NCBI GenBank assembly: GCA_964448465.1
Contig: CAYUVY010000001.1
Coordinates: 25,196 to 89,195, forward strand
Length of the DNA stretch: 64,000 bases
Reading direction: 5' to 3'
Origin: an uncultured Gammaproteobacteria bacterium
Lineage (GTDB): Bacteria > Patescibacteriota > Microgenomatia > UBA12405
Shown here piece after piece: positions 11,100-51,081 of this stretch (positions within the stretch are counted from its first letter, which is position 1; the number at the start of each line of letters is the position of its first letter). Position numbers and translations under genes: made by a program. The notes beneath the pieces were generated by a model. It was not told the DNA's origin. It saw nothing but the letters and a program-made list of their open reading frames with translations, and did not search any database.

Positions 11100-12141
11100 A
11101 CAAAAAATAGTTCAAATAGTTCTACCTCCTCAAACCGATACAAGTAAATTTAGAGGTATAGGTGAATACACCCAACACCTAATTGACCACGTATCTAAAC
11201 AAAAAAAATATCAACTTCTTTTGCAACATGAAATTTCACCCAAGGCAGATTTAATCCACTATCCCAGTTTAGACTTTTTTAAAACCACCTTACCTTTAAT
11301 TTTTAAGCAACCAACTATTTTAACAGTTCACGACGTTATCCCGATAGAATACGCCAATCATTTCCCCGTGGGCCTTAAAGGCAAATTGGCCTGGTTATAT
11401 CAAAAACAACGCTTACAATCTGCAAATTTTATTCTTACCGACTCCCATAGCTCTAAATATAGTTTGCATAGACAAACCGGTTACCCTCTTTCTAAGATAT
11501 ACAATGTTTACCTAGGTGCAGACACCAATTATCATCCGATCCAAAAACTTGAAGCCAAAAAACTAGCTCAAAATTTACACTTACCCGAGCAATTTGTTCT
11601 ATATGTAGGCGATATTAATTGGAATAAAAATATACCCAACTTATTAAATGCCTGCATAAATATTTCAATACCTCTGGTTTTAGTAGGCAAAACTGCTAGT
11701 ACCCCACTAAACGAAGTGCCACATCATCCTTGGACAGAAGATATTCGATATCTCAAAATAATGCAAGAAAAATACCCCAAACTAATTCTTACCCCAGGCT
11801 ACTTAGAAACAAAAACTATTAATGCCTTATACCAACTAGCCTTGTGTTATTGTCAACCTTCTTTTGCCGAAGGATTTGGCCTACCACTGCTACAGGCTAT
11901 GCAGGCCGGTTGCCCCATTGCTTATAGCTACACTACCAGTTTAATTGAAATAGGTAATTATGTGGGGCAAATCTTTAATCCTGAAAAAACAAAGCAAATA
12001 GAAAAATGTGTATTACAATACAAAAACGATCCCAAACTTCGAGAAAATTCCATCAATAGTGGTTTAATCCAAGCCCAAGCTTTCTCTTGGGAAAAAGCTG
12101 CCACACAAACTTTAGCTGTCTATGACTTAGCTATAAAATGA
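11086..12141 (+). CDS. Glycosyltransferase family 4 (GT4)
   Basis: EGFGLPLLQAMQAGCPIAYS is a GT4 C-terminal motif. The internal ATG at 11086 was chosen because the track start at 11041 overlaps the upstream gene by 59 bp. Confidence 0.75.
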   Translation: MTGNKQKIVQIVLPPQTDTSKFRGIGEYTQHLIDHVSKQKKYQLLLQHEISPKADLIHYPSLDFFKTTLPLIFKQPTILTVHDVIPIEYANHFPVGLKGKLAWLYQKQRLQSANFILTDSHSSKYSLHRQTGYPLSKIYNVYLGADTNYHPIQKLEAKKLAQNLHLPEQFVLYVGDINWNKNIPNLLNACINISIPLVLVGKTASTPLNEVPHHPWTEDIRYLKIMQEKYPKLILTPGYLETKTINALYQLALCYCQPSFAEGFGLPLLQAMQAGCPIAYSYTTSLIEIGNYVGQIFNPEKTKQIEKCVLQYKNDPKLRENSINSGLIQAQAFSWEKAATQTLAVYDLAIK

Positions 12142-12944
12142 TTACTACCAACCATTTTTTGAGTGTTATTGTCCCTATTTATAAGCAGGAAAAAACAATT
12201 CAAGAAGACATAAGTCAAATTTTAAACACACTCTCGCTTTTACGCTACGATTTTGAACTAATTGCCGTTGTCGATGGCATTAATGTTGATAATTCCTATA
12301 AAATATTAAAAAAAATAAACAATCCAAAACTAATTGTCACCGGATATTTACACAACAAAGGTAAGGGTAATGCTGTTCGTTTTGGTATGGCCAAATCCAA
12401 AGGTGACTATGTCGCCTTTATTGATTCTGGTATGGATATCGACCCCAACGGTATCTCCATGCTTATAGAACACCTTGAGTGGTATAAAGCCGATATTATC
12501 ATTGCCTCCAAAAATCATCCAGCCTCTATGGTTGTCTATCCTCTACAACGTAAGATTTTGAGTCTAATTGTTCAGACTTATATGCGCTTGTTCTTAGGTC
12601 TAAAGATTACCGATTCCCAAGCAGGACTAAAATTATTTAAACGAAAGGTTTTAGTCGCAGTTTTACCAAGGCTGCTAGTAAAAAATTTTGCTATAGATCT
12701 GGAAATATTAAGTGTGGCAAAATACTTGGGCTTTGACAAAATTTACGAAGCCCCTATTAAACTTAAATATGACTTTAAACCACTTACTCATTCCTCCACA
12801 AACTTAAAGGCTATCAAGCAGTTTGCTATCGACGCCTTAGCAATTTTTTATCGTATATATATTAAGCGCTACTATCGTGATAATAATTATCGGCAGTGGG
12901 TTTTTGATCCTGAACTAAAAATGCGCGTCAATACTGGCCAATGA
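12138..12944 (+). CDS. Glycosyltransferase family 2 (GT2), DPM1-like soluble type
   Basis: LSVIVPIYKQEKTIQEDI...VDGINVDNS. ATGA overlap with the upstream gene. Confidence 0.75.
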   Translation: MITTNHFLSVIVPIYKQEKTIQEDISQILNTLSLLRYDFELIAVVDGINVDNSYKILKKINNPKLIVTGYLHNKGKGNAVRFGMAKSKGDYVAFIDSGMDIDPNGISMLIEHLEWYKADIIIASKNHPASMVVYPLQRKILSLIVQTYMRLFLGLKITDSQAGLKLFKRKVLVAVLPRLLVKNFAIDLEILSVAKYLGFDKIYEAPIKLKYDFKPLTHSSTNLKAIKQFAIDALAIFYRIYIKRYYRDNNYRQWVFDPELKMRVNTGQ

Positions 12945-13939: not shown

Positions 13940-15457
13940 ATGTCTAAGAAAAAACTATCCATAGCTATTTCTTACCCCCCTCTAGAAACCAACAAAGGCA
14001 CAGCCTTTTTATCCCAAAATCGCCAGTTTCAATGGACAAATACAGGAAATTGTATATATCCAGTAATCCCAGCTTATGCCGCTAGTTTGTTAGAAAGAGA
14101 AGGCTACCAGGTTTATTGGGACGACGCTATTGCCGAAAAACTCAGCAAAGATCAATGGCTCAAACGGATATTAGAATTAAAGCCAGACGTCATTGCCATT
14201 GAGTCCAAAACACCTACTATCAAATGGTACTGGCAAGTTATCGATGAACTACGCACCTACCAAACTAAATCCTGGCAACCCACCATAGTCTTGCTTGGTG
14301 ATCATCTTACGGCTCTTCCCCAAGAATCCCTAGAAAATTGCTCTGTAGACCTGGTAATCACTGGTGGCGACTATGATTTTATGTTGCTAAATCTAATGAA
14401 CAACTTGGATCACGGAGAAACCTTAGAACCTGGTATCTGGTACAGGGATGGTAAAACTATAAAAAACACCGGTCCATATGCTTTAAAACACCACAATCTC
14501 GACAGCTTGCCTTTTATTAACCGAGATCTAACTAAATGGGAACTTTATGCCTACAACAATGGCAATTATAAATACACTCCAGCCACCTATATGATGACCG
14601 GACGCGACTGCTGGTGGGGTAAGTGTACCTTTTGCTCTTGGACCACTATTTTCCCCGGTAAGGCATTTCGGTTTTTTACTCCCAAGCGTACTCTTGCCGA
14701 AGTAAAACACGTGGTCGACAATTATAGTATCCGCGAGATTTTTGATGACGCCGGTACTCTCACTCCGGGCGCCTGGATTCATGAATTTACCAAAGGACTA
14801 ATATCATCAGGTCTACACCAAAAGGTTCGTTATGGAGCCAATATGCGCTTTAATGCTGTTGGTGAAAAAGAGTACCAAACCATGGGTGAAGCCCGATTTA
14901 GATTTATGCTCTATGGCCTAGAATCTAGTAATCAAAAGACTTTAGATCTACTTGAGAAAGGTACCAAAACCGAGGACGCCAGAAAGTCCCTAACTTTAGC
15001 CAAAAAATACGGTATGGAACCACACTTAACTATCATGATTGGTTATCCTTGGGAAACTCGTCAAGATGCCCTAAATACTCTAGAAGAAGCCCGAAGCTTA
15101 TTTCGAGACTGCCTGGCCGATTCTATGCAAGCCACCATTGTCATACCCTATCCTGGTACACCGCTATTTAAACAATGCCAAGAAAATAATTGGCTTTTAA
15201 CCAACGATTGGAACGATTATGATATGCGCCAAGCTATCATGAAATGCGACATGGGCACAGAAGAATTAAAAGCCATGGTTCAGAGTTTATTCAAAGGGGT
15301 GCTTACACCAAAATTCTTAACCAAAAAGATTAGTTCTATTCGCAGCGTAGATGACGTTAAGCATCTGGGTAGCTATGCCTATAAGTTTATTAAAAAACTG
15401 AAGGATTTCCCAGTCTACAATGCCAACACTCTCGGTAGTCATACCCACGCTCAATAG
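13940..15457 (+). CDS. B12-binding-domain radical SAM-like enzyme (class B-like), function unknown
   Basis: N-terminal Rossmann-like B12-binding-type domain (KPDVIAIESKTPT...IVLLGDHLTALP...LVITGGDYDF). Cys triad GRDCWWGKCTFCSW has Cx4Cx2C spacing rather than the canonical Cx3Cx2C. A downstream GLESSNQKTLDLLEKG motif matches the rSAM core. Locally elevated GC. Confidence 0.65.
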   Translation: MSKKKLSIAISYPPLETNKGTAFLSQNRQFQWTNTGNCIYPVIPAYAASLLEREGYQVYWDDAIAEKLSKDQWLKRILELKPDVIAIESKTPTIKWYWQVIDELRTYQTKSWQPTIVLLGDHLTALPQESLENCSVDLVITGGDYDFMLLNLMNNLDHGETLEPGIWYRDGKTIKNTGPYALKHHNLDSLPFINRDLTKWELYAYNNGNYKYTPATYMMTGRDCWWGKCTFCSWTTIFPGKAFRFFTPKRTLAEVKHVVDNYSIREIFDDAGTLTPGAWIHEFTKGLISSGLHQKVRYGANMRFNAVGEKEYQTMGEARFRFMLYGLESSNQKTLDLLEKGTKTEDARKSLTLAKKYGMEPHLTIMIGYPWETRQDALNTLEEARSLFRDCLADSMQATIVIPYPGTPLFKQCQENNWLLTNDWNDYDMRQAIMKCDMGTEELKAMVQSLFKGVLTPKFLTKKISSIRSVDDVKHLGSYAYKFIKKLKDFPVYNANTLGSHTHAQ

Positions 15458-26382: not shown

Positions 26383-27216
26383 ATGAACAAATTAAGATCC
26401 GTTAATCCCTCCTTCTACAACAAGGTCTATTTTAAGGGCATAAATTTTGGCAAAGTTGACCCCAGAAAAACAAGTACCTACCCAAAAAAATACTTAGAAA
26501 TACTGAATATTTGCCCAATTAAATCAACAGATAAAATTGTCGATTTTGGTTGCGGCAATGGCCTGTTAAGCCTAATATTGGCTTATAAGAAAAACATTGA
26601 AGTTATTGGTATAGATTACTCCAAAGATGCCATAACTAACTCAATTGCCGCCCAACTAGACTTTCAAAAAACACTAGGTAGAACCTTAAAACTTAAATAT
26701 CTCCAGAGAGATAACCTACATCTACCTATGTTAAAAAATATCTCCATAGTCTATCTTTCAGATGTGGTTGAACACTTATACGATGAAGAATTAACTTATA
26801 TTTTTAATATTTTTAAAACCTGGGGTAAAAAAATTACAATAATAATTCACACAGACAATTCTTATTATTTAAAATTCGTTAAACCAATTCAAGATATCTT
26901 GGCACTGATTACCAGAAAAACCAGTATAAACAAAATCCTCTATGCAAATAATCTTAATGCAAAGTATCACATAAATCTTACGAACCCCCAAAAATTTAAC
27001 AAACTAATGTTTTTGAATGGATATAAAAATATCCAAATAATATATCCTCAAACCACAAAAGAAGCAATTATTCAACAAATGGGTCAACTGTCAAATATTC
27101 CCGGTGCTTATTGGTTAATACAAAGAATATTAAAAATAGACATTTTCAAACAATTACTTTCACCAGGGTTTTACGCCGTATACGAGCACAAAAATAATAA
27201 AAAAACTGTTAGTTAA
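26383..27216 (+). CDS. Class I SAM-dependent methyltransferase
   Basis: IVDFGCGNGLLSLILA motif I and a LSDVVEHL motif. Confidence 0.65.
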   Translation: MNKLRSVNPSFYNKVYFKGINFGKVDPRKTSTYPKKYLEILNICPIKSTDKIVDFGCGNGLLSLILAYKKNIEVIGIDYSKDAITNSIAAQLDFQKTLGRTLKLKYLQRDNLHLPMLKNISIVYLSDVVEHLYDEELTYIFNIFKTWGKKITIIIHTDNSYYLKFVKPIQDILALITRKTSINKILYANNLNAKYHINLTNPQKFNKLMFLNGYKNIQIIYPQTTKEAIIQQMGQLSNIPGAYWLIQRILKIDIFKQLLSPGFYAVYEHKNNKKTVS

Positions 27217-28975
27217 TTTGTTTTAGTAAGTCTCTTGCCGGAGTAAAACCCGGATTAATATTCAATGATTGCTCGACTAGTTTTTTAGCGGAATCCCTCT
27301 TCCCTTGGGTCAGCTCATTAACTGCTTTCATATACAATCCTTGAAAATTGTTATTATCTAAACTTAACAATCGATCCAGTATCATGTCAACTAAGGGGTA
27401 ATCCTTTTCTGTGTATACAACCTGAGCCAAACTAAGATAACTTTGATATAAAGTTGGGTTTAATTTTATTGCCGTAAGGTAGCTATCTTTTGCCAGGTCT
27501 AGTCTACCCATTTTATAAAATATGTTTGCCCTATTGTGAAAGGCATCTGCATAATCAGGCTTAACCACCGTCGACTGAGTAAAACCCTTAACCGCGTTCT
27601 CATATTGTGCTAATTTATCGTAATCATCCCCAATGTTGTTCCAAGCATTATGAGAGTTAGGTGAGACCTGGCAAGTATTAACCCATAAATTATGATTGGT
27701 CTGCCAGTCAATATTTCTTAAGTAAATTCTAAAAGCAAACACACCACAAACCACAGTTAACAGAAAATAACCAAAAAGAGGCAATTTTGAGTTTAGTTTA
27801 TAAAACATTAAACCAAATATCAAACTAATCCCTAAACTACCAAAAAATACATAACGTTCAGCCACCATCCAACTTACCCTCAATGGTGACATGGCAATGC
27901 TGCTTGCCAAAAACGTAAATGCAAGGCCCCAAAATATAATTTTATTTTGTTTGGCAAAATAAAATAAACAAGCAAAATAGAGTATAAAAATCAACCAATT
28001 TAACCATACTGGATTTATAAATAAGGTGTGATATAGAGTTAAGTCAACCGGAAAAACTATCAACTGCAGATATTTTGATACTGAAGTTGGGTATTGCTCA
28101 AATGGATTATAAAAAACACTAACCGTCCCACTGTTAACTACCGTAACTCTCTCTTTAATAGCTGGAAAATAAAATGCAATCATAGTAAGAACCAGAAAAG
28201 TTACCATCAAAAAATAACTCAATTTGAGTTTCCTTGTAAATTGTCCAAACTCCCCAACTGAAAATTTTAAGAGTAGATACAAGAATATTGTGTTGGCGAC
28301 CCAAAATTTTACTGTAAAAATGCCAACAAAAAGGGCTGATATAAGGGAAATCAGATAAGTTTTACTTTTAGTTTTTTCCAAGTAGTAAAAAGACAAGACT
28401 ATCCACAAACTAGTTATAGCTAAATATAAATATGGCTTACCAGAAATCCAGGTAACTCCTTCTACGTGAACTGGTAAGACAGCGTAAATAACTAAAGATA
28501 GATTAGTAAGTTCCTTAGATTTCGTTATTAGATACAAGAAAACATAGCCTAAAACTAAGCTTGTTCCATACAAAAACAAACTAAACAGATGGTATGGCGT
28601 AGGGTTTTGATTGCCAAAAAGATGATAAAAAATATAGTAACCCACAGAAAGTAAGCTAAAATTTTCTCTAACATACGAAATATTCCCAACCTCACTATTT
28701 TGGTTCAAAGTAGCATAATCATCCGAGACAAAATTAGCGTTCATTCCGTTGGCGTATACAGCCACAACCAAAGCTAGAATAATCAACAAAAACTTCCAAT
28801 TACCCTTAATTATTTGCCAAATACTTTCCACTTTTTCTGTCTGTAAGCCCTGTACTCTTTCGGCCACAAACTCTTTAATATCATTTATGCCCGCACCTAC
28901 CTTTTTGGATAGTTCTTCAGGCGAAAGATGTGCATTTTGTAATACAAATTTACGCTTCTTTTTGCTTAAACCCAT
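27209..28975 (-). CDS. TMTC-like membrane protein: N-terminal polytopic GT-C-like domain with DD motif plus C-terminal TPR repeats
   Basis: FVSDDYATL acidic motif follows the first TM helix. More than 10 hydrophobic segments. The C-terminus carries 3-4 TPR-like repeats (AWNNIGDDYDKLAQYENAVKGF...AFHNRANIFYKMGRLDLAKDSYLTAIKLNP...). Confidence 0.6.
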   Translation of the reverse strand: MGLSKKKRKFVLQNAHLSPEELSKKVGAGINDIKEFVAERVQGLQTEKVESIWQIIKGNWKFLLIILALVVAVYANGMNANFVSDDYATLNQNSEVGNISYVRENFSLLSVGYYIFYHLFGNQNPTPYHLFSLFLYGTSLVLGYVFLYLITKSKELTNLSLVIYAVLPVHVEGVTWISGKPYLYLAITSLWIVLSFYYLEKTKSKTYLISLISALFVGIFTVKFWVANTIFLYLLLKFSVGEFGQFTRKLKLSYFLMVTFLVLTMIAFYFPAIKERVTVVNSGTVSVFYNPFEQYPTSVSKYLQLIVFPVDLTLYHTLFINPVWLNWLIFILYFACLFYFAKQNKIIFWGLAFTFLASSIAMSPLRVSWMVAERYVFFGSLGISLIFGLMFYKLNSKLPLFGYFLLTVVCGVFAFRIYLRNIDWQTNHNLWVNTCQVSPNSHNAWNNIGDDYDKLAQYENAVKGFTQSTVVKPDYADAFHNRANIFYKMGRLDLAKDSYLTAIKLNPTLYQSYLSLAQVVYTEKDYPLVDMILDRLLSLDNNNFQGLYMKAVNELTQGKRDSAKKLVEQSLNINPGFTPARDLLKQIN

Positions 28976-28989
28976 AGTCCTAGTATAAT
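28962..28989 (+). promoter_or_regulatory. Candidate sigma70-like promoter TTGCTT-16 bp-TATAAT, ending 6 nt before the wzm ATG; would give a leaderless or near-leaderless transcript
   Basis: TTGCTT at 28962-28967 and TATAAT at 28984-28989, read directly. Only 20 bp separate the divergent genes. Confidence 0.25.
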
Positions 28990-28995
28990 CTATAC

Positions 28996-29796
28996 ATGCC
29001 TCTTGTGGTAAAAGAAATTATCAGCATATATAAGTACAGAGAATTATTGTACCAGCTCACCCTGCGCGAAATAAAGTCCCGCTACAAACAGTCCATTCTT
29101 GGCTATTTTTGGGTTATTTTTAATCCCTTGGCTCAAATGATTGTCATGAGCTATGCCTTTTCCATTATTTTAAAAGTACCCACCAACGCCACCTCCAACA
29201 TTCCTTATTCTGTTTTTTTATTTACAGCTCTTTTACCTTGGAACCTGTTTGCTAATTCTTTAACTTCAGCCTCCAATTCCTTGGTTACTAATTCCGGTTT
29301 ACTTACAAAAATATATTTCCCTCGCACTATCCTACCTATTTCTACCATTCTCGCCAAAATCGTCGATTTTCTCTTTGCTAGCCTAATCTATATTATTTAT
29401 ATGCTTTGGTACCAAATACCCATAAATTTCAATGTACTCTGGATAATTCCAATATTTTTTATCCAATTAATTTTCACCACTGGTTTATCCTTGTTCCTTA
29501 GTGCTACCAATTTACTATATCGAGACATTCAATACCTCCTAGGCTTAATCTTAACGCTATGGATCTACATCACCCCCGTCTTTTACCCTGCCGACCTAAT
29601 TCCCGCCAAAGCCAGGTTTATCTTTCAATTTAATCCCATGGCCGTGATTATCAACGCCTACCGCCAAGTTATCCTAGCCGGTGGGAACCCCAATTTCACC
29701 AGTCTTTGGATAGCTCTAGTAGTCTCTGTTACTACACTAATTTTGGCCTTAGCTTATTTTAAACAGCAAGAAAAAACCTTTGCAGACAATGTTTAA
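28996..29796 (+). CDS. wzm: ABC-2 type polysaccharide/teichoic-acid exporter permease
   Basis: YKYRELLYQLTLREIKSRYKQSILGYFWVIFNPLAQM is a classic Wzm/TagG N-terminal signature. Six predicted TM segments. Confidence 0.8.
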   Translation: MPLVVKEIISIYKYRELLYQLTLREIKSRYKQSILGYFWVIFNPLAQMIVMSYAFSIILKVPTNATSNIPYSVFLFTALLPWNLFANSLTSASNSLVTNSGLLTKIYFPRTILPISTILAKIVDFLFASLIYIIYMLWYQIPINFNVLWIIPIFFIQLIFTTGLSLFLSATNLLYRDIQYLLGLILTLWIYITPVFYPADLIPAKARFIFQFNPMAVIINAYRQVILAGGNPNFTSLWIALVVSVTTLILALAYFKQQEKTFADNV

Positions 29797-30529
29797 TCCA
29801 ACCCCCATCATCCAATTTAAAAACGTAACCAAGAAGTTCTCCTTTAACAAGCAGAAAACCTTCAAAGAATTTATCCCGGCCCTACTAGGTCAGCAAGAAA
29901 CCAAAACTATGTTTACAGCTCTAGATAACATCAGCTTCGAAGTATATCCTGGTGAAACCGTAGGAATAATTGGCCCCAACGGTAGTGGCAAGTCTACTAT
30001 CTTAAAACTAATTGCCAACGTCACTAGTCCCACCTCGGGAGAAGTTATTGTCAACGGCCGAGTCTCGCCATTAATTGAACTGGGGGCGGGCTTTCATCCA
30101 GATCTAACTGGGCGCGAAAATATATTTTTAAACGGCAGCATTCTTGGCCTAACTCAAAAGGAAATAAAGCACAATTACAAAAGTATTGTCGACTTTGCCG
30201 AGCTTGCCGAATTTATTGACCAGCCAGTCAAGCACTACAGTTCTGGCATGTATATGCGCCTAGCCTTTGCTGTGGCTGTACACACTAACCCACAAATCCT
30301 CCTGGTCGACGAAATCCTAGCAGTAGGGGACTCCACCTACCAAGCCAAATGCTTTAAAAAAATGGAAGAGTTCAAAAAATCCGGCGTAACTATCATCTTC
30401 GTCTCCCATTCTTTATCTTCTATTAGAAATTTTTGTGATAAAACAATATCTCTTAGCAAAGCAACAATAAAATATCAAGGTAAGACAGCCGATGTCCTAA
30501 ACAAAACAACAAGTCATGAACAAAGTTAA
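29780..30529 (+). CDS. wzt: ABC transporter ATP-binding protein, short form (no C-terminal glycan-binding domain)
   Basis: Walker A GPNGSGKST, signature YSSGMYMRLAFA, and Walker B LLVDEILAVGD. Confidence 0.85.
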   Translation: MQTMFNPTPIIQFKNVTKKFSFNKQKTFKEFIPALLGQQETKTMFTALDNISFEVYPGETVGIIGPNGSGKSTILKLIANVTSPTSGEVIVNGRVSPLIELGAGFHPDLTGRENIFLNGSILGLTQKEIKHNYKSIVDFAELAEFIDQPVKHYSSGMYMRLAFAVAVHTNPQILLVDEILAVGDSTYQAKCFKKMEEFKKSGVTIIFVSHSLSSIRNFCDKTISLSKATIKYQGKTADVLNKTTSHEQS

Positions 30530-33990: not shown

Positions 33991-34797
33991 ATGATTTACG
34001 ATTGCTTCATGATTTACAACGAGCTTGAAATGTTAAAGATTAGACTTAACATACTCTCAAAATACGTCGATTATTTTGTAATAGTAGAGTCTACGCATAC
34101 TCACTCCGGTAAACCGAAGAAGCTGTATTTTAAAGAAAACAAAAACAAATTTAAGAAATTTTTAAACCAAATTGTGTATATAGTTGTAGATGATTTGAAC
34201 AACGCTCCTATAATAACAGACAAACCACCGTACGATAAAATAGAATTATTTCAATTAAATCCTTTAACCTGGTCAAGGGAGTTCTACCAAAGAAATTGCA
34301 TTACCAGAGGTCTAATAAACGCAAAAGATAGTGATCTTATCTTAATCGGAGATATAGATGAAATTCCAAAACCAGAAAAAATTAAATTAGTTAAATATTC
34401 ACAAAAACCTACTTGCTTTGAACAAGACTTTTATTATTACTTTCTAAACTGTCTTTCGAGCGAAAAATGGAGAAAGGGAACAAAAGGCATATATAAAAAA
34501 TTTCTCACTACTCCACAAGAAATAAGACATGTAGACTACAACAATTCACACTTACTCAAAGATGCTGGATGGCACTTTTCATATCTTGGTGGTAGGGAGC
34601 AAATAGTAAAAAAAATTGACTCATTTAGCCATCAAGAACTTAATAATATAGAAATAACAAATTTTAAAAGATTAAAATTCAACATTGATAATAATTTGGA
34701 TATATTTGACAGACCTTATACTTACAAAATTGTAAAGATTAATAACAAATACCCACACTACATTATTAATAATAAAAAATACTTAGTAAATTTATAA
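33991..34797 (+). CDS. Glycosyltransferase family 17-like (MGAT3/bisecting-GlcNAc-transferase family homolog)
   Basis: N-terminal signature MIYDCFMIYNELEMLKIRLNILSKYVDYFVIVESTHTHSGKPKKLYF matches the Glyco_transf_17 hallmark DxFxFxNExDxLxxRLxxLxxxVDxFVIVES...GxxKPL. Confidence 0.7.
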   Translation: MIYDCFMIYNELEMLKIRLNILSKYVDYFVIVESTHTHSGKPKKLYFKENKNKFKKFLNQIVYIVVDDLNNAPIITDKPPYDKIELFQLNPLTWSREFYQRNCITRGLINAKDSDLILIGDIDEIPKPEKIKLVKYSQKPTCFEQDFYYYFLNCLSSEKWRKGTKGIYKKFLTTPQEIRHVDYNNSHLLKDAGWHFSYLGGREQIVKKIDSFSHQELNNIEITNFKRLKFNIDNNLDIFDRPYTYKIVKINNKYPHYIINNKKYLVNL

Positions 34798-35038: not shown

Positions 35039-36769
35039 TTAATTTGTTCTAGTACAGCGGTAGATCAATGTATTCTCAAACAACGCTAGGCTTTGAAAAT
35101 ACCAAGCAGATTTATCTAACTCAAGCTTCTTGCAAACTCGATTTCGGTTCCAATAAATTATTTCTAAATTTAACCACTGCTTATCGCCAATTACCAATAT
35201 ACTCTTCTCAGCATCAACTCTCTTCAATAGCAGTTTAAAATTCTCTGAGACCAGCTTGCTGTTAATCAATTCAACATATCTTGTTTCATCAACGGCATTT
35301 ACTATATTTGCACCTTTATAACTAGCCAAATATGCGAAAAAAGATTCCGGTCCACGAAAAGCAACTACAACCGTTTCCTTCTCTCCAATTATCGACTCGT
35401 ATCCATTTACCATATCGTCTAGCCGATCTTTCCCCAATAATTTTAGACTATCTATATATGTTTTTACAAAAAAAGGCCTATTGGCAGTATTTTGTAACCA
35501 AATCAAGTTAGGTCGCCAACCAAAATCAGTTGAAACCGAAGTAAAACACAAGATCACAAAAACAACGAATAGCAGCCACCACCTCTTTAATCTAAGGCTG
35601 TAATTAAGTTTTAATGCGTATACTAAATACAACCAATAAACTGCAGCAAAAGTTAACAAATAGCGCGAGTAACCCATTAGCACCGACCAAATCAAATAAC
35701 AAAAAATAAATATAATATATTTCCACTTTCTTTTAATTAGTAACAAATACCACGATAGCAAGTAGGGGAATGCCCAAAAACACGCAAAAAAGTACTTAGC
35801 TTCAGTTTTTACAATACCTTCTCCAAATCTTTGAGTAAATTGAGCCATTACCGGCCATGCCAATATCTCTTGCCAATTTTGTGGCCCCCACCTCGTGTCT
35901 TTAAAACTAACCAATGCATAAAATGGTGACTTAAAAAATCCATTGTATAAAAATGAAATTGGGTTTCCAGTATTTATGTATGATGCTCCAAAAAATATAA
36001 ACACAAACAATACAATTAATATTACCCAAAACCATTTAATTTCTCTTTTATTTTGCCAGACAAAGTATAAAAATATTGGCATTAAGACAATCCCAGCAGA
36101 TTGTTTGATTATCATTGATAGCAAACCCACAATAACTCCCAATGTTCGATTACCTGTCTTAACAACAAGCTGATAAAACATTTCCAAACCCAAAACAAGC
36201 GTCAAAAAATCTACCATAAATGTTGTGTGGGTTGCCATCAGGTGAGGAACAAAAAATATGTATATAAAAATAATGTCCCACCATATCTTTTTATTATTAT
36301 TTTTCTCTACTTGCTTTAGTCTTAAATTAATCGAGGCGTACCATGCAATCAACAAAATACCATTAAATAGTAAACTTAACCTTATCCCAAAAACCTTTAA
36401 TAATAACGGATATCCCAACTGGGCAACAGGATAAATATATGAACCAAAATCTAGGGGCAAAAAATTTACTGCCTGCCAAATATTTTTTGCATACCATCCA
36501 GCCTCCAAGTGGAAAGCAAAATCATCATAAACAGGATAATAAATAGGGAAGCGACTCAATAAGACTACCCACAGAGGCACGGTCCACCACCAATCGATTA
36601 AATAAAATTTAATTTGCTTGTCCTTATTATTTCTCCACAAAACATACCAAATTATTATCCACAAAATCAATAATCCCCATCCAAAATAATCACTAATATT
36701 AAAAACCGAAATCACGGCCAGCATCACCACCCCTGCCAACAAAAAACTAATATAAATCAATCTTGCCAT
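35039..36769 (-). CDS. Large polytopic membrane protein with C-terminal soluble domain; possible GT-C-like glycosyltransferase
   Basis: 576 aa with more than 12 hydrophobic segments. A YPVYDDFAFH acidic motif is near the N-terminus. The C-terminal 150 aa are hydrophilic. Confidence 0.45.
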   Translation of the reverse strand: MARLIYISFLLAGVVMLAVISVFNISDYFGWGLLILWIIIWYVLWRNNKDKQIKFYLIDWWWTVPLWVVLLSRFPIYYPVYDDFAFHLEAGWYAKNIWQAVNFLPLDFGSYIYPVAQLGYPLLLKVFGIRLSLLFNGILLIAWYASINLRLKQVEKNNNKKIWWDIIFIYIFFVPHLMATHTTFMVDFLTLVLGLEMFYQLVVKTGNRTLGVIVGLLSMIIKQSAGIVLMPIFLYFVWQNKREIKWFWVILIVLFVFIFFGASYINTGNPISFLYNGFFKSPFYALVSFKDTRWGPQNWQEILAWPVMAQFTQRFGEGIVKTEAKYFFACFWAFPYLLSWYLLLIKRKWKYIIFIFCYLIWSVLMGYSRYLLTFAAVYWLYLVYALKLNYSLRLKRWWLLFVVFVILCFTSVSTDFGWRPNLIWLQNTANRPFFVKTYIDSLKLLGKDRLDDMVNGYESIIGEKETVVVAFRGPESFFAYLASYKGANIVNAVDETRYVELINSKLVSENFKLLLKRVDAEKSILVIGDKQWLNLEIIYWNRNRVCKKLELDKSAWYFQSLALFENTLIYRCTRTN

Positions 36770-36798: not shown

Positions 36799-38187
36799 AT
36801 GCTTTTCAGCTCGAATATATTTTTACTAATATTCCTTCCCGCAATCCTTCTTTTGTATTTCTCGGTCTCCAAAATATTTAAAAATCCAAATAATTTTCTA
36901 AATTTAATACTTATCTTTTTTAGCCTATTTTTTTACTATTGGGGCAGTGGCAAATTTATTCTAATCTTCTTCTGTTCCATCATGTTAAATTTTCTTTTAG
37001 GCCAATTAATTGCAAAAAAAACAAACTTAAAAAAATATTTTTTATTTCTTGGCATTACTGGCAACATTTCCTTACTTATATATTTCAAATATTTTCAATT
37101 TTTTTATCAGCAAACATCTTTTTTACTTCATCTTGGTCTACCACCACTAAATCCTATATTTCTCCCCATTGGTATTTCCTTTTATTCTTTTATGGCCATT
37201 TCCTATCTTGTAGATGTTTACCAACAAAAACAAAAACCTGCAAACCTCCTCAGCTTTACACTGTATATTAGTTTGTTCCCTCATTTAGTTGCTGGACCAA
37301 TTGTCCGCTATCAGGAAATTGCCGACAGTATTAAGAAACGAAGTCCCAACACAGATCAGTTTTTCAATGGACTATGGCGATTTTCCCTGGGACTTGGTAA
37401 AAAAGTAATTATTGCCAATTCCGTAGGACAGCTTGCTGATAAAGTTTTTAGCCTCCCGTTAAACGAAATTGGCTCGCTACTCGCAATTTTGGGAGTACTT
37501 GCTTATACAATTCAAATCTATTTCGATTTTTCTGGTTACTCCGATATGGCGATAGGTCTTGCCAGTTTCTTTGGTTTTACTTTTCCTGAAAATTTCAATC
37601 ATCCTTACCGTGCTGTTTCCATCACTGACTTTTGGCGTCGTTGGCACATGTCTCTATCCCGATTTTTTCGTGACTATCTGTATATACCCCTAGGTGGTAG
37701 TCGTACAGGATCTGCCAGAACCTATTTCAACCTACTTGTTGTCTTTATTCTCTGTGGTCTTTGGCATGGTGCAGCTTGGACCTTTGTAGCCTGGGGTTTA
37801 TACCACGGATTGTTACTAACCATCGAAAGAATTGCTAAGAACAAATTTAATTTTGAACCAAGTGGCATAATATTTCAGTTATTTACTTTCTTACTGGTTT
37901 CTATTGGCTGGATAATATTTCGTTCACCGAACCTTACCTTTGCATTATCTTACGTAAAAAATATATTTTCGTTTACTAACACCATACCTGAGTTTTACAC
38001 ACTTCGATATTTTGTACCCAACAACATTGCTTTCTTTTTAGCGCTTGGCTTGTTACTTTCATTCATACCAGCAACCAAACCAAAAAACGTTGTCATTTGC
38101 GGACTTGTCTCCATATTTATACTAATACTTTCACTTGCCTATCTATCCAAAACCTCATTTACTCCTTTTATATATTTTCAATTTTAA
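36799..38187 (+). CDS. MBOAT-family membrane O-acyltransferase (AlgI/DltB-like)
   Basis: WRRWHMSLSRFFRDYLYIPLGG and FPHLVAGPIVRY are hallmark MBOAT/AlgI motifs. The conserved His is in GLWHGAAW. Confidence 0.85.
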   Translation: MLFSSNIFLLIFLPAILLLYFSVSKIFKNPNNFLNLILIFFSLFFYYWGSGKFILIFFCSIMLNFLLGQLIAKKTNLKKYFLFLGITGNISLLIYFKYFQFFYQQTSFLLHLGLPPLNPIFLPIGISFYSFMAISYLVDVYQQKQKPANLLSFTLYISLFPHLVAGPIVRYQEIADSIKKRSPNTDQFFNGLWRFSLGLGKKVIIANSVGQLADKVFSLPLNEIGSLLAILGVLAYTIQIYFDFSGYSDMAIGLASFFGFTFPENFNHPYRAVSITDFWRRWHMSLSRFFRDYLYIPLGGSRTGSARTYFNLLVVFILCGLWHGAAWTFVAWGLYHGLLLTIERIAKNKFNFEPSGIIFQLFTFLLVSIGWIIFRSPNLTFALSYVKNIFSFTNTIPEFYTLRYFVPNNIAFFLALGLLLSFIPATKPKNVVICGLVSIFILILSLAYLSKTSFTPFIYFQF

Positions 38188-39395
38188 TGACTGCCTTTTC
38201 CTCTTTAATGTTTTGGCACAACATAAAAGTTATCTTTTTAACGGTTATCTTCGGGCTTATTATCTTAAAGATACTTAACAAATATCTTAACCAAAAGAGA
38301 ATTTTTATAGGGTTATTTTTTGTTCTATTACTTATTCCATTTGTTCAAACTAAAACAAACCTCATTCAGTATCGCCCCTTAGAAGAAAATCGCAAAAAAT
38401 TAACCCTCCCTACCGGTAACCCTGTTATTGAAATTTTCAACAACCAAAAAACATACACCTTGGCTTATGAAAAATACTTCAACGATAACTATGGTCTGCG
38501 AGATTTATTTATTCGTGTAAAAAACCAAATCGACTACTCACTATTTAGGGTATCTGACGAAGTATTAATAGGAAAAGATAATTGGCTTTTTTACAAAAGT
38601 GTTGTTGAGAAGGAACAAGTATATATGGAACAGCAAAGCAATACACAATTATTAGCCATACAAGACAAAATGATTTCATTGAATAACTATTTTAAAAAGA
38701 GGGGTGTGTTGTTTGTGGTAATGCCAATACCTTTAAAAAACTCTATATATCCAGAGTTGTATATTAATAGAACAACAAACAGACCTAGTCCAACAAAATT
38801 CGAACGATTTATTGCATTTCTCCAAACACACCCTGAAATTAAATCTATAGACGCAAGATCTATTTTGCTTAACAATAAAGATAAATACCAACTTTTTTAT
38901 AAAACAGATTTTCATTGGACAGATACTGCAGCATATTTAGTCAACAAAGATACTGTTGAATCAATAAATAAATGGGTACACGGAACAACCAAGTGGAGCT
39001 ACTCACTTCAAACCCAAGAAGATAGTAGTTTTACAGGTGGACAAACTGATTCACTTGCAACACTTGTCTCACCTAGAGAAGTGGCAATTCATGTAATAAA
39101 CTCACCAAAAGGCTCTACACCTGACCCTAAAACACCAAAACCTTTCTTATACTACTTTAAATCTTCACTTACAAATCAGAAGTTATTGCCAAAAACCTTG
39201 CTTATTGGCAATTCATACTTTTTAAACATGCTTAACACTGGTTTTGTTGATCACTTTGATGAATTTTTGATGATCCATGGTAATGACATGGATAAAATAC
39301 CAGAATCAATCCCTAAAGATGTAAAAGTGGTAATATTTCAAATGATAGAAGTAGACCTGTTAAAAAATTTTTTGTTCAGTAAATCTAACACATAA
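38187..39395 (+). CDS. AlgJ/AlgX/DltD-like SGNH-type O-acyltransferase partner (N-terminal membrane anchor)
   Basis: N-terminal TM helix, then the KTDFHWTDTAAY motif (DxHW is typical of the AlgJ/AlgX family). Immediately downstream of the MBOAT gene, with the ATG overlapping its stop (TAATG). Confidence 0.55.
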   Translation: MTAFSSLMFWHNIKVIFLTVIFGLIILKILNKYLNQKRIFIGLFFVLLLIPFVQTKTNLIQYRPLEENRKKLTLPTGNPVIEIFNNQKTYTLAYEKYFNDNYGLRDLFIRVKNQIDYSLFRVSDEVLIGKDNWLFYKSVVEKEQVYMEQQSNTQLLAIQDKMISLNNYFKKRGVLFVVMPIPLKNSIYPELYINRTTNRPSPTKFERFIAFLQTHPEIKSIDARSILLNNKDKYQLFYKTDFHWTDTAAYLVNKDTVESINKWVHGTTKWSYSLQTQEDSSFTGGQTDSLATLVSPREVAIHVINSPKGSTPDPKTPKPFLYYFKSSLTNQKLLPKTLLIGNSYFLNMLNTGFVDHFDEFLMIHGNDMDKIPESIPKDVKVVIFQMIEVDLLKNFLFSKSNT

Positions 39396-40145: not shown

Positions 40146-41096
40146 ATGAAACAAACTGCTAAATTAATAAGTATTGTGATCCCTGCATTTAATGAAAGTA
40201 AAATAATTTCAACTTCTGTTTCTAGGGTGATTAAAACATTAATCAAAATTATAAAAATATCGTTAATAAATAACTATGAAATAATTTTTGTAGATGACGG
40301 TAGCAAAGATAACACATGGGGTTGCATTAAAAATTTACATAAAAAAAATTCAAGAATCAAAGGTATAAAGTTATCACGAAATTTTGGTATGCAGACTGCA
40401 CTGATGGCTGGTTTAAAAAAAGCAACGGGGGATTACACAGTAATACTTGAATGCGACCTACAAGATCCACCGGAATTAATTGAGGGAATGTTAAATAAAT
40501 TGATAAAAACAAGAAGTGATATTGTATGTGGAAAGAGAATAAGTCGATCAGAATCAGGTCAAAAGCAATTTGTATTTAAACTATTCCATTATATTTTTCA
40601 CAACATTAGTAACATAAAGGTCCCTCAAAATGTCGGCACCTTTTCAATTTTAAACAGAAGAGCGCTAACTGCCCTGTTAAGTTTTAAAGAAAAAAACCGG
40701 TACATACCTGCTCTAAGATATCTTGTCGGATATAAACAAATATATGTAAACTATGAAAGACTTGACAGGGTTGATGGACCAGCCAAAATGAGCACATCAA
40801 AATTACTTGCTCTAGCATCAGACGCTCTCTTTTCATTCACTGATTTTCCTTTAAAGTTTTGTCTATTCCTGGGTTTTACTGGCGTTTTGCTATCTTTATT
40901 AGTAGGGTTGTATGCAATAATTTCAAGACTATTTAATTTCAATGTGATTATTGGTTGGAGCTCAACACTACTTAGTATCTATTTTTTTGGCAGCCTACAA
41001 TTAATCTTTCTTGGAGTTATTGGACAATATATTTTTAAAATATACATAGAGGTTCAGGATAGGCCCGACTATTTTATATCAGACGAAACAAAATAA
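40146..41096 (+). CDS. Polyprenyl-phosphate glycosyltransferase (GT2; GtrB/ArnC/DPM1-like, two C-terminal TM helices)
   Basis: ISIVIPAFNESKII...FVDDGSKDNTW and DLQDPPEL motifs. Two C-terminal TM helices (FLGFTGVLLSLLVGLYAII...LIFLGVIGQYIFKIY) are typical of GtrB/ArnC. Confidence 0.75.
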   Translation: MKQTAKLISIVIPAFNESKIISTSVSRVIKTLIKIIKISLINNYEIIFVDDGSKDNTWGCIKNLHKKNSRIKGIKLSRNFGMQTALMAGLKKATGDYTVILECDLQDPPELIEGMLNKLIKTRSDIVCGKRISRSESGQKQFVFKLFHYIFHNISNIKVPQNVGTFSILNRRALTALLSFKEKNRYIPALRYLVGYKQIYVNYERLDRVDGPAKMSTSKLLALASDALFSFTDFPLKFCLFLGFTGVLLSLLVGLYAIISRLFNFNVIIGWSSTLLSIYFFGSLQLIFLGVIGQYIFKIYIEVQDRPDYFISDETK

Positions 41097-49077: not shown

Positions 49078-50007
49078 CTATCTAACAAGCAGCAACGGCA
49101 GGCCTACTAATTGGCTTATTAAACCAATTACCCCACTAACTCCAGATACCAACACGGCTTTGTGAGGATCCACTCCAACTTGAGAAAAAAAGTATCCATA
49201 CAATAATTCCCTAGCTCCCCAGCCAGAAAGTGAAATTGGCAGTACCAAGATAAAAGAAATTATTGGGAAAATTGAGTAAATACTGGCCAAACTCATATTT
49301 GCCTGCAAAATAACTGCCAAAAAATAATTTGGTAAGATCCAAACTAGTTGAGCAAAAATAGAGATAACATATGCCCCTGCAACCCTGGATAAACCCTCTT
49401 GATTTAATACTTCTTCTATAGATACTATTTTTTGTAACCACTTAATTTTTAGGGCATATTTTTTTAAATCCAATAAATACGCCAAGCCAATTGCCACCCA
49501 CATCCCCACAAACAACCCCAGACAGATAAAAACAATATTGGCAGGCAAGCTTAGTCCTACAACTTTTGCCAAAACAATCCCAATAAAGGCCACGGTTACC
49601 AATGAAACTAGTCCTACTAATCTATCGGCCACCATGGACATGGCCAGTTGTGATTTTTTCAGTTCCGGAAAACTTTTATGTAGTATTAACCACTTGGTCA
49701 CATCCCCACTTAAACTGCCAGGTAAAAACATTCCATAAAAACCCGCCATCGCATTGGCCTTCCAAATTAGCCACAGTCTTTTTGGATCTATCTTTCCCCA
49801 TAACAACCAAGACCAGCGCACTCCCGCCAAAACTCCTACCACTTGAGAATAAATAACAAACATTGGTATTGTCCACCAGGGAATTAAACTAATTTGACCA
49901 ATAATTTCACTAAAACTTATTTTCGTGGAAAGTAAATACACACAACCCAACGTAAACACTAGTCGGAAAGGCAAGGAAGTTATAATTCTCTTAAGCCATG
50001 TCATCAT
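49078..50007 (-). CDS. UPF0104 / LPG-synthase-TM-like flippase-like membrane protein
   Basis: 309 aa with about 8 TM segments. N-terminus LVFTLGCVYLLSTKISFSEI...WWTIPMFVIYSQVVGVLAGVRWSWLL resembles the lysylphosphatidylglycerol synthase TM (flippase-like) domain. Assignment is by architecture. Confidence 0.5.
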   Translation of the reverse strand: MMTWLKRIITSLPFRLVFTLGCVYLLSTKISFSEIIGQISLIPWWTIPMFVIYSQVVGVLAGVRWSWLLWGKIDPKRLWLIWKANAMAGFYGMFLPGSLSGDVTKWLILHKSFPELKKSQLAMSMVADRLVGLVSLVTVAFIGIVLAKVVGLSLPANIVFICLGLFVGMWVAIGLAYLLDLKKYALKIKWLQKIVSIEEVLNQEGLSRVAGAYVISIFAQLVWILPNYFLAVILQANMSLASIYSIFPIISFILVLPISLSGWGARELLYGYFFSQVGVDPHKAVLVSGVSGVIGLISQLVGLPLLLVR

Positions 50008-51081
50008 CTTTATATTCTATCCTATGTTTGTCTCATATTTTCCCCCCGGCTGTCGACGGTGGTTCCCAGATTATTTTCAACCTAGGTAAGCAACTAGAAA
50101 AACATGGTCACCAGGTCACCTATTTCGCAGGTCCAGGTCAGAGTACCGACGATTATCTAAACTCATTTTCTAGATATCTAAAATTTATCCCCATTCTTGG
50201 ACCTATTCTAAAAATCGGACCAATTTTCTCACCCCTAACTTTATTCAAACTAACCAGACTTAAGCCTCAAATTATCTTAGCTGGACCCTTACCCACCACC
50301 ATTGCCCTATATGCATATCTACTTAAGCTGCTAACTGGAGCCAAATTAATTCTTGTGCCTTGCTACCATCCTACTGATCCAAGTTTTAATAACCCAATCT
50401 TTACCTATATTCTCCGAAACTCCAATTTAGTGATAACTCTAACTAACTACGAAACTTACTTCAAACTTCAAACTGTCAAGTTCTACCTCCTGGTATTAAT
50501 GCTGATTTGATACTAAAAAGTAAGCCTAGCTTTCCCAAAACTAAAAATGTTTTGTTTCTTGGTAATTTTGCCGCTCACAAACAAATAATCTTGCTAATTC
50601 AAGCTTTTTGTAAATTAAAAGCACCCTGTACTCTCACTATTGCGGGCAAAAAAACCTTGTATTATCCTGAAATTCAAAAATATCTCCACAACTTACCCAA
50701 ACCAATTCAAACCAAAATTACTTTCATCGACATGGGCTATAATCCTGATTTACTTGTTAACTTGTTAAACTCTTGTACTATCATGTGCCTTCCTTCTTCT
50801 CAAGAAAGCTTTGTATAGTTTTTGCCGAAGCTTGGGCCAGAGGTAAGCCAGTAGTGGGTACCGATATTCCCGCAGTTACCGAACTTTTCCAACAAACCAA
50901 AGGTGGCACAACCTTTAAAAATCTTGATTCCCAATCGCTAACTCAAACCCTAGAAAAACTATTAACAAACCCACAATTCTGCCAAAAACTTGGTCAAAAT
51001 GGTCATAAGTATGTACGACAACAACTCACTTGGGATAAAATTGGTAACCAACTATGCGCTATTTTGCCATCCTTATTTTAA
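49998..51081 (+). pseudogene. Frameshifted GT4 glycosyltransferase, split over three frames (49998-50510, 50507-50818, 50773-51081)
   Basis: Three consecutive ORFs encode the N-domain (VDGGSQIIFNLGKQLEKHGHQV), the middle (PPGINADLILKSKPSFPKTKNVLFLGNF, readable only in the second frame) and the C-domain (FAEAWARGKPVVGTDIPAV) of one GT4. Single-base frame changes are near 50465 and 50813. Confidence 0.6.

Follow-up and report, generated by a model that had tools for sequence, protein, structure and literature searches.

The DNA analyzed here (the window) is a stretch of 64,000 nucleotides from contig CAYUVY010000001.1 (GenBank assembly GCA_964448465.1; positions 25,196 to 89,195 of the forward strand), and the gene under study occupies positions 27209..28975 on its minus strand (stop codon, 27209-27211). 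On the basis of the open reading frame (ORF), its translation, and an AlphaFold2 model, the product, a protein of 588 amino acids (aa), is a predicted TMTC-like GT-C glycosyltransferase with a C-terminal tetratricopeptide repeat (TPR) domain. It is encoded divergently from wzm (28996..29796, plus strand), which specifies the ABC-2 permease of a glycan exporter (Pfam ABC2_membrane; NCBIfam Wzm/KpsM-like) and is followed by wzt (29780..30529, plus strand), which specifies the TagH/Wzt-like ATP-binding subunit of the exporter (Pfam ABC_tran; NCBIfam TagH, 1.4e-70) without a C-terminal carbohydrate-binding domain. The new element that we report is the near-obligate partnership of this protein family with Wzm/Wzt, usually together with a YvcK-like gene, in Patescibacteria. 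The 588-aa ORF is a genuine gene because an identical protein is recorded on 6 contigs and >440 homologs of ~565 to 590 aa were retrieved; another relative is 83% identical. Almost all of the homologs come from metagenome-assembled genomes of Candidatus Shapirobacteria, Woesebacteria, and other Patescibacteria, and they are usually labeled "tetratricopeptide repeat protein," with two carrying the JGI label "protein O-mannosyl-transferase." The original prediction, made from the letters and their ORFs, was silent on the strand; the divergence from wzm that it described implies the minus strand, and it is there that the 588-aa ORF is found.

Two AlphaFold2 models, one of the full-length protein built from a 32-sequence alignment (predicted local distance difference test [pLDDT], 80.3; predicted template modeling score [pTM], 0.73) and one of the membrane domain (residues 1 to 432; pLDDT, 78.4; pTM, 0.78), agree with each other. 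Both contain 11 membrane helices, i.e., a first transmembrane helix (TM1) and 10 more, as had been estimated (residues 60-78, 126-151, 154-175, 177-202, 205-221, 223/226-240, 252-280, 323-343, 345-362, 380-397, and 399-~420), 9 of which a hydropathy scan recovers outright. Lysine and arginine account for 12 of the N-terminal 61 residues and are abundant in the short loops at residues 152-158, 200-205, 241-251, 342-345, and 395-399, and the long loops at residues 79-125 (extracytoplasmic loop 1 [EL1], with the DD motif) and 281-322 (EL4) are not rich in them. By the positive-inside rule, the predicted topology is thus N-in and C-out, with the N terminus in the cytoplasm as originally proposed. 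Given 11 helices and an N-in orientation, EL1, EL2, EL4, EL5, and the C-terminal domain would all be extracytoplasmic, which places the DD loop and the TPRs on the same side of the membrane and not on opposite sides. The protein can accordingly be divided into a predicted cytoplasmic N-terminal region rich in lysine and arginine (aa 1-59; 28799..28975, minus strand), as judged from the residue counts, the modeled helices, and the alignment; a membrane domain of 11 helices with a probable GT-C fold (aa 60-420; 27716..28798, minus strand), as judged from AlphaFold2, Foldseek, and hhalign; and a predicted extracytoplasmic part comprising the TM11-TPR junction, four TPRs, and a capping helix (aa 421-588; 27212..27715, minus strand), as judged from Pfam and AlphaFold2. 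The FVSDDYATL sequence lies where it was first noticed, a few residues past TM1 (residues 82-90). The C-terminal 150 residues are modeled as four helix pairs followed by the capping helix, and Pfam TPR matches, two of them strong, span residues ~434-587, which settles the earlier estimate of three to four repeats at four. A separate observation concerns the N-terminal region, where an insertion of ~20 aa forms three short helices with a small helix-turn-helix-like appearance (LSPEELSKKVGAGINDIKEFV; residues ~1-45; 28835-28975, minus strand). These helices (residues 5-13, 19-26, and 30-40) are modeled at a pLDDT of 72 to 85, and the insertion is confined to the 588-aa protein, its 83%-identical relative (P0002), and one other homolog (P0013) in which it is longer and similar.

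Pfam and NCBIfam searches with the whole protein recovered only TPR models, with nothing on the membrane domain and, in Pfam, no Wzy_C or STT3. Searches of PDB sequences with the protein or a full-length profile were dominated by TPR proteins, and a profile of the membrane domain alone gave zero matches even at E ≤ 10. The Pfam PMT_2 model was matched by 1 of 13 family members (6.6e-7), by a few other homologs, and by some second-tier relatives (see below). Foldseek searches with the full-length model likewise returned only TPR matches. With the membrane-domain model, every match at a probability of ≥0.77 was a GT-C enzyme, and non-GT-C proteins reached at most 0.21. The best match was the oligosaccharyltransferase PglB (PDB code 5OGL; query-normalized TM-score, 0.50) at a weak E value of 0.009, followed by STT3 (6S7O), Pmt4 (9I5K), AftA (8IF8), DPY19 (7ZLI), and Pmt1/2 (6P25). 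The models thus indicate a GT-C-type fold, in agreement with the original assignment, in that the high-probability structural matches are exclusively GT-C enzymes, though their E values are weak. The arginine of an invariant VAERY motif (R374) sits in EL5 directly before TM10. In GT-C enzymes, the EL5 arginine binds the carrier-lipid phosphate, as do R404 of TMTC and R375 of PglB (PMC7801869), and by its position and motif R374 would be their equivalent. Three other affiliations were tried and rejected: a paralog of the polytopic proteins encoded at 7227-8750 and 35039-36769 of the window (hhalign with the family profile shows no relationship), an ArnT/PMT_2 paralog (the family profile scores at most 3.8 bits against the PMT_2-type proteins of the window), and an O-antigen ligase with TPRs (the protein has no Wzy_C match).

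That PglB is the best structural match favors an enzyme that transfers the exported polymer en bloc from undecaprenyl-diphosphate to a conserved surface protein, in a glycosylation of the S-layer type, or to the wall, and which would then take the place of Wzy_C-type O-oligosaccharyltransferases (WsaB/PglL), of WaaL, or of LCP ligases. The lead of PglB over the other GT-C enzymes is marginal, however; the protein has TPRs at its C terminus instead of the periplasmic domain and WWDYG motif of PglB/STT3; its sequence relatives, the TMTCs, use monosaccharide-phosphate donors; and we know of no GT-C enzyme that carries out O-linked en bloc transfer. We regard this function as unlikely.

The sequence comparison led to the eukaryotic TMTC proteins, which are defined by 11 TM helices, a cytoplasmic N terminus, and luminal TPRs (Eisenhaber et al. 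2021, PMC7801869). TMTC1 to TMTC4 (CAZy GT105) are Dol-P-Man:protein O-mannosyltransferases for cadherins and protocadherins and bear seven motifs, namely, M1 (DD), M2 (SHKSYRP), M3 (RxD after HPxHTE), M4 (KE[T/Q]xxT), M5 (DW in the DUF1736 loop), M6, and M7 (ERxxY), of which M2, M4, and M5 are attributed to contacts with mannose, metal, and phosphate (PMC7801869). Animal TMTC fragments, several of them named TMTC3 by NCBI, were fetched with the TMTC3 peptide quoted in that study. A hidden Markov model of the bacterial membrane domain scored 27 to 46 bits on these fragments versus a maximum of 8.1 bits on 1,100 composition-matched shuffles. The profile comparison proposed at the outset gave a clear result: hhalign aligned the bacterial family with 16 TMTC3 N-terminal pieces over 125 columns (residues 78-204; probability, 98%; E = 2.5e-13), a comparison that, with pieces of up to ~207 aa, covers the N-terminal half of the membrane domain. 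All other proteins of the window, including those of the PMT/PMT_2 type, scored at most 3.8 bits against the same model, which argues that the relationship is specific to TMTC and not a generic GT-C resemblance.

The details of the alignment show both retention and replacement. The DD context reads GFVFDD-x-SAI-x-x-N in TMTC3 and xFVSDDYATI-x-QN in the bacterial family, and both groups share G-x-x-P-x-x-YH of EL1/TM2, (H/L)P(I/V)H(T/V)EAV...G(R/K) at TM3/EL2, and AER in EL5. M1 and M7 are therefore retained, the latter as A-E-R-Y with the tyrosine beside the arginine instead of at +3. M3 corresponds to P-V-H-V-E-G-V...G-K-P-Y, in which the histidine, the glutamate, and the basic residue are kept and the acidic residue has become an invariant tyrosine (Y182). 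In contrast, M2, invariant in the TMTC3 fragments, is absent from the bacterial alignment, where hhalign pairs it with a nonconserved stretch; M4 is replaced by D-x-x-R (R225 in at least 90% of the family; the 588-aa protein itself has T-V-K-F-W); and M5 is replaced by Y-H, with EL4, in the position of DUF1736, carrying YNP..QYP and D-x-TLYHT instead. Pfam DUF1736 was detected neither in the query nor in 13 family members, even at E ≤ 10, nor in 10 second-tier relatives. The idea that the protein mirrors TMTC therefore stands for the homology of the N-terminal half of the membrane domain and the presence of TPRs, and fails for the DUF1736 half and for M2, M4, and M5. For these reasons we use the label TMTC-like: judged by its sequence, the protein represents a divergent branch in bacteria and not a TMTC in the strict sense.

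Since the nearest characterized relatives, the TMTCs, are protein O-mannosyltransferases (PMC7801869), and since the JGI annotators chose that name for two members, a stand-alone function in protein glycosylation, the one originally proposed, has to be weighed, in which a sugar from a polyprenyl-phosphate donor would be transferred to serine or threonine of a secreted or surface protein recognized by the TPRs and the proximity of wzm/wzt would be incidental. The replacement of the mannose, metal, and phosphate contact motifs of TMTC argues against it, as do the genomic contexts described below, and on balance we consider it rather unlikely, while keeping it in view as a serious competitor.

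The distribution of conservation across the 32 aligned sequences bears on all of these possibilities. FVSDDY (aa 82-87; 28715..28732, minus strand), the catalytic-type DD motif of the first extracytoplasmic loop equivalent to TMTC M1, is invariant in 32/32 sequences. The TM3/EL2 motif PVHVEGVTWISGKPY (aa 168-182; 28430..28474, minus strand) matches the TMTC motif HPIHTEAVTGVVGRAE in the profile and hhalign alignments. By translation and conservation, the EL4 loop (aa 281-322; 28010..28135, minus strand) carries the invariant YNP..QYP and D311-x-TLYHT, and the EL5 loop (aa 363-379; 27839..27889, minus strand) carries the invariant W-x-VAERY equivalent to M7. In full, the invariant blocks are FVSDDY (82-87), F120/G121...H129, P168-x-H-V-E172...W176...G179...Y182, R276, N281, Y289-N-P...Q294-Y-P, D311-x-T-L-Y-H-T317, W369-x-V-A-E-R-Y375, R420-N...W424...N-H...L-W431, and S-P-N-S-H-N-A-W-N-N-I-G-D-D-Y-D-K-L (438-455). 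When conservation is expressed as the mean frequency of the majority residue, with the query and its 83% relative excluded, the TM11-TPR junction ranks highest (0.94), followed by EL5 (0.88), EL2 (0.86), TPR1-2 (0.84), and EL4 (0.82), compared with 0.45 to 0.69 for the TM helices, 0.57 for TPR3-4, and 0.47 for the cytoplasmic N terminus. High conservation of the outward loops and the junction relative to the helices fits an active site that faces outward beneath a cap formed by the first TPRs. TPRs typically bind proteins, and the near invariance of TPR1-2 and the junction (0.84 to 0.94) speaks for protein O-glycosylation. The lowest AlphaFold2 confidence (pLDDT of <50) falls on the most conserved blocks, at residues 84-88, 312-319, 367-369, and 435-456, i.e., the DD motif, TLYHT, SWM, and the SPNSHNAWNNIGDDYDKL junction (window positions ~28712-28726, ~28019-28042, ~27869-27877, and ~27608-27673); going by the model, these segments may be mobile active-site loops that become ordered only with substrate.

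Proteins with TPRs, such as BcsC, PgaA, and AlgK, scaffold polysaccharide secretion systems, and a GT-C-derived protein whose TMTC ligand-contact motifs have in several cases been replaced might similarly be a noncatalytic scaffold or chaperone, its TPRs organizing an export or assembly machinery without any transfer of sugar. We hold this to be highly improbable because the catalytic-type residues D85, D86, H170, E172, D311, E373, and R374 are invariant across the family; moreover, conservation in the extracytoplasmic loops far exceeds that in the helices, as expected of a maintained active site.

The genomic context of the family was examined in one genome per GTDB species, which gave 74 loci, almost all from Patescibacteria, including 36 in which the sequence extends at least 5 kb to either side of the gene. 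Among these 36, a Wzm homolog (median identity, 68%) and a Wzt homolog (66%) were each found within 10 kb in 35; the median identity of the target homologs across the synteny loci is 44%. Of the 51 loci with a visible wzm, 50 have it upstream of and divergent from the target homolog, at a distance of between 20 bp and 6.6 kb, most commonly ~1.0 to 1.4 kb. The usual occupant of the interval is a YvcK/CofD-related gene, which in 49 of 50 loci is upstream of and co-directional with the target homolog and in 38 is its immediate neighbor; its product matches a UDP-GlcNAc-binding protein family at 150 bits, below the curated cut-off (loci L005 to L078). The 64-kb window contains no YvcK-like homolog anywhere, and we therefore interpret its 20-bp wzm-target spacing as a derived arrangement, of the same type as that seen in an 84%-identical relative (locus L069). 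Unbiased clustering of the neighboring ORFs recovered a 338-aa family in 26 of the 36 loci and further families in 10 to 22, and window homologs and representative sequences identify the recurrent families as GT2s, GT4s, radical-SAM enzymes, and a methyltransferase. The same clustering yielded no S-layer, pilin, or other nonenzymatic acceptor candidate conserved within 10 kb. The association with S-layer or pilin genes raised by the original prediction was thus not borne out, and the strongest partners proved to be Wzm and Wzt instead. Many of the records behind these loci (L009, L019 to L021, L023, and others) bear the title "uncultured Gammaproteobacteria bacterium," and a single record each goes under Methanoperedens and Bacteroidales; placeholder labeling or misbinning of contigs seems to be the cause.

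The Wzm/Wzt partnership points at least as much to an exported glycopolymer as to a protein acceptor. For protein O-glycosylation, the lack of an S-layer, pilin, or serine/threonine-rich acceptor gene conserved within 10 kb is a weak objection, as acceptors may be unlinked, and a further one is that the conserved partners are a lipid-linked-polymer exporter and a YvcK-like protein, not the set of a GtrB and a small flippase. En bloc transfer would account for both the exporter synteny and the invariant TPR1-2. In a more specific version, the TPR-bearing GT-C protein docks on or works with Wzm/Wzt as a terminal transferase that passes the exported, lipid-linked glycan en bloc to a conserved surface protein or wall acceptor in Patescibacteria, a coupling that we rate as distinctly improbable.

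The donor might be supplied from within the window, where two genes are candidate makers of a lipid-phosphate-linked sugar, going by their profile matches. The first (40146..41096, plus strand) encodes a GtrB/ArnC/PgfS-type polyprenyl-phosphate sugar synthase (NCBIfam PgfS, 4e-69, and ArnC, 3e-40, both full length; Synechocystis GtrB, PDB code 5EKP, 6.8e-59) with two C-terminal TM helices. It adjoins a gene for a DUF2079 membrane protein (41122-42720, minus strand), and the two look like a separate pair of synthase and GT-C enzyme. The second (12138..12944, plus strand) encodes a DPMS-like GT2 without TM helices (Pyrococcus Dol-P-Man synthase, PDB code 5MLZ, 2.9e-8; weak PgfS, AglJ, ArnC, and PpgS matches), which exceeds all other glycosyltransferases near the family in conservation (median identity of ~62% in 21 loci) and, in the protein O-glycosylation scenario, would echo the eukaryotic pairing of dolichol-phosphate-mannose synthase with TMTC. 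A possible carrier-lipid flippase is a polytopic protein of the LPG_synthase_TM family (49078..50007, minus strand; Pfam, 1.6e-27; NCBIfam flippase-like domain). The GtrB-type synthase and the flippase-like protein, components that together with a GT-C enzyme would make up a multicomponent transmembrane glycosylation system, lie 11 to 20 kb from the target gene.

In view of the nearly constant linkage of the gene to wzm/wzt, we favor, tentatively and at somewhat less than an even chance, a post-export role in an ABC transporter-dependent pathway: an extracytoplasmic, polyprenyl-phosphate-sugar-dependent transfer to the Wzm/Wzt-exported glycopolymer, for priming or decoration. The analysis shows the gene, its topology, the pattern of conservation, the GT-C-type fold, the homology with TMTC, and the synteny; we infer catalysis, the type of donor, the identity of the acceptor, and any physical coupling to Wzm/Wzt. 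The 11 helices would anchor the enzyme in the cytoplasmic membrane with its N terminus inside, and the active site would be assembled on the outer face from EL1 (FVSDDY), EL2 (P-x-HVE...G-K/R-P-Y), EL4 (YNP..QYP and D-x-TLYHT), and EL5 (VAERY), with the four-repeat TPR domain directly atop it and presenting an extracytoplasmic acceptor. By analogy with GT-C enzymes (PMC7801869), the sugar donor would be a polyprenyl-phosphate-linked sugar whose phosphate is held by R374 of EL5. D85, the first aspartate of the DD motif, might activate or position the acceptor or contact the acceptor and/or a metal, and H170, E172, and D311 are candidate ligands of a metal or the sugar. The sugar of the polyprenyl-phosphate-monosaccharide would be added after export to a glycopolymer that is still lipid linked or newly anchored, while the conserved TPR1-2 might dock on a partner, whether the exporter, a conserved linkage end, or a carrier protein. 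Extracellular decoration of ABC-exported polymers by GT-C enzymes is established, as in the action of streptococcal GacL after GacDE and of mycobacterial AftA/Emb after the galactan exporter (PMC8035078). A role of this kind would account for the synteny and for an active site of the monosaccharide type.

A number of observations weigh against a post-export role on the glycopolymer. The closest characterized relatives, TMTC and PMT, glycosylate proteins, and a near-invariant TPR1-2 is more readily understood with a constant partner protein than with a polysaccharide that varies, unless the TPRs dock on the exporter or a conserved linkage end. We know of no TPRs in AftA/Emb. Nor have the polymer-decorating GT-C enzymes GacL, YfhO, CsdB/D/F, and GtsC been described with them (PMC8035078). 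The gene for the GtrB-type synthase is separated from the target by 11 kb and adjoins that of another GT-C enzyme, and its homologs accompany the family in no more than 4 loci. With ~5 clusters at 50% identity, the core subfamily forms a rather shallow clade, and its linkage to wzm/wzt could in part have been inherited from a common ancestor along with a single conserved glycan island; the variation among loci in the genes between and around the target and wzm/wzt counts against mere inheritance. Finally, one second-tier relative (with a ±7-kb flank) lies among glycan genes without wzm/wzt, and another, on a 9.5-kb contig, lies among unrelated genes, likewise without wzm/wzt; the third relative examined lies on a contig of 3.7 kb, which offers too little flanking sequence for a judgment of synteny.

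At the 5' end of the gene, the spacer to wzm is exactly 20 bp, as originally noted (agtcctagtataatctatac; 28976..28995), and contains TATAAT on the plus strand, 8 bp before the wzm ATG, and TATACT on the minus strand, 6 bp before the target ATG. Two complete promoters cannot fit into 20 bp and must therefore overlap each other and the neighboring coding regions; the sequence suggests very short or absent leaders for both genes. A consensus promoter scan predicted a single site for the strand of the target gene, the -35 element of which falls inside wzm, in a count not above that of shuffled sequences. Of the shared regulatory region that had been proposed, the divergent layout thus makes co-regulation of wzm and the target gene plausible, and the promoter scan does not exceed chance. 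At its 3' end, the target gene shares 8 bp with a convergent methyltransferase gene, and a scan there gave no terminator-like site and nothing above the shuffled expectation.

The surroundings bear out the placement in a glycan island, as the whole 64-kb window is an island of glycan biosynthesis, with many GT2 and GT4 genes, methyltransferases, a B12-radical-SAM enzyme, and dTDP-sugar genes. This layout (dTDP-sugar genes, methyltransferases, and wzm/wzt) presumably resembles an S-layer glycan cluster, which, with neither a Wzy_C nor an LCP gene seen in the 64-kb island, would suit en bloc transfer; such genes may sit outside the island in the genome, however. Five tandem ORFs (507 to 574 aa; 2333-10311, plus strand) encode polytopic proteins without TPRs, two of them with weak PMT/PMT_2 matches, and other polytopic proteins are the DUF2079 protein (41122-42720, minus strand) and unannotated products at 35039-36769 (minus strand), 56608-58020 (plus strand), and 57984-59378 (plus strand); the island thus seems to hold at least seven TPR-less GT-C-like enzymes that are unrelated to the target at the profile level. 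A gene for an MBOAT acyltransferase (36799-38187, plus strand) is followed by one for an AlgX-like SGNH protein (38097-39395, plus strand), a pairing typical, by analogy, of extracytoplasmic polysaccharide O-acetylation. A GT4 is split across three successive short ORFs (49998-50510, 50507-50818, and 50773-51081, plus strand), which points to a gene that is frameshifted or in decay, or else to errors in the sequencing. A 268-aa protein (33991-34797, plus strand) matches Pfam Glyco_transf_17 (1.5e-30), which is unusual for a bacterial glycan cluster and better known from eukaryotic GnT-III. B12-binding radical-SAM enzymes (13940-15457, plus strand, in the window) occur near the family in 34 of the 36 loci at low identity and often in several copies, a recurrence that hints at radical methylation or other unusual glycan chemistry.

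An exhaustive search of 1.84 billion representatives at 50% identity with the membrane-domain profile matched 63,416 clusters at E ≤ 1e-3, a number that falls to 20,750 at E ≤ 1e-10 and to 562 at E ≤ 1e-30. The core Patescibacteria subfamily makes up about 5 of these representatives, with scores of 470 to 540 bits, after which the scores drop to ~260 bits. Of 10 second-tier relatives checked, 9 combine the membrane domain with TPRs and 1 (421 aa) is without a Pfam match; 4 of the 10 show a weak PMT_2 match, and those sampled carry three to four TPRs. Full-length homologs combining a sugar transferase with TPRs have been noted in many uncharacterized prokaryotes, an example being AMJ42_05695 of a deltaproteobacterium (Eisenhaber et al. 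2021, PMC7801869), and our literature search found no functional study of any bacterial TMTC-like enzyme with a GT-C domain and TPRs. The architecture is thus already noticed, very common, and uncharacterized in bacteria.

Such an architecture will not surprise a specialist; the coupling to an exporter offers a testable entry point to an uncharacterized stage of envelope assembly in Patescibacteria, an uncultivated phylum with reduced genomes in which little is known of how the envelope is built. A highly conserved external glycosyltransferase that is present as a single copy and locked to an exporter is a candidate for the missing post-export step in the assembly of a surface glycan or glycoprotein, and D85, D86, H170, E172, D311, E373, and R374, together with TPR1-2, are targets for mutagenesis and complex prediction. 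Should the exporter-docked en bloc transferase be true, a TMTC-type GT-C enzyme would act as an O-oligosaccharyltransferase or a ligase, a role that until now has been assigned only to Wzy_C-type enzymes and LCP proteins, and the origin of the TMTC architecture would gain a prokaryotic functional context. Homology with TMTC also offers a simpler prokaryotic model, with four TPRs, of an enzyme family involved in human disease.

Compared with known systems, the protein shares with the TMTCs 11 TM helices, an N-in orientation, and noncytoplasmic C-terminal TPRs. TMTCs carry roughly 8 to 12 TPRs, and the bacterial protein has fewer, only four; it further differs in that its carrier lipid and sugar would be bacterial and its gene is linked to a Wzm/Wzt exporter. 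With PglB/STT3/AglB, its top structural matches, it has in common an acidic EL1 motif and an arginine before TM10, whereas those enzymes have 13 TM helices and a C-terminal alpha/beta domain with WWDYG, transfer en bloc to asparagine, and show no detectable sequence similarity to it in comparisons of the profile with PDB sequences. Enzymes of the AftA/Emb type and of the GacL type, the latter from multicomponent transmembrane glycosylation systems, resemble it in their GT-C fold, external active site, polyprenyl-phosphate-monosaccharide donors, and acceptor polymer exported by a Wzm/Wzt-type transporter, a likeness that in several of these respects depends on the function proposed here; they belong to other sequence families (PMT_2, YfhO, and Emb) and, unlike the present gene, usually have a partner GtrB-type synthase adjacent. 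The prokaryotic homologs of Eisenhaber et al. (2021) have the same two-part architecture of glycosyltransferase and TPRs, and the 588-aa protein belongs to this class, within which its subfamily is distinguished by a near-invariant TM11-TPR junction and a fixed synteny with wzm/wzt and a yvcK-like gene.

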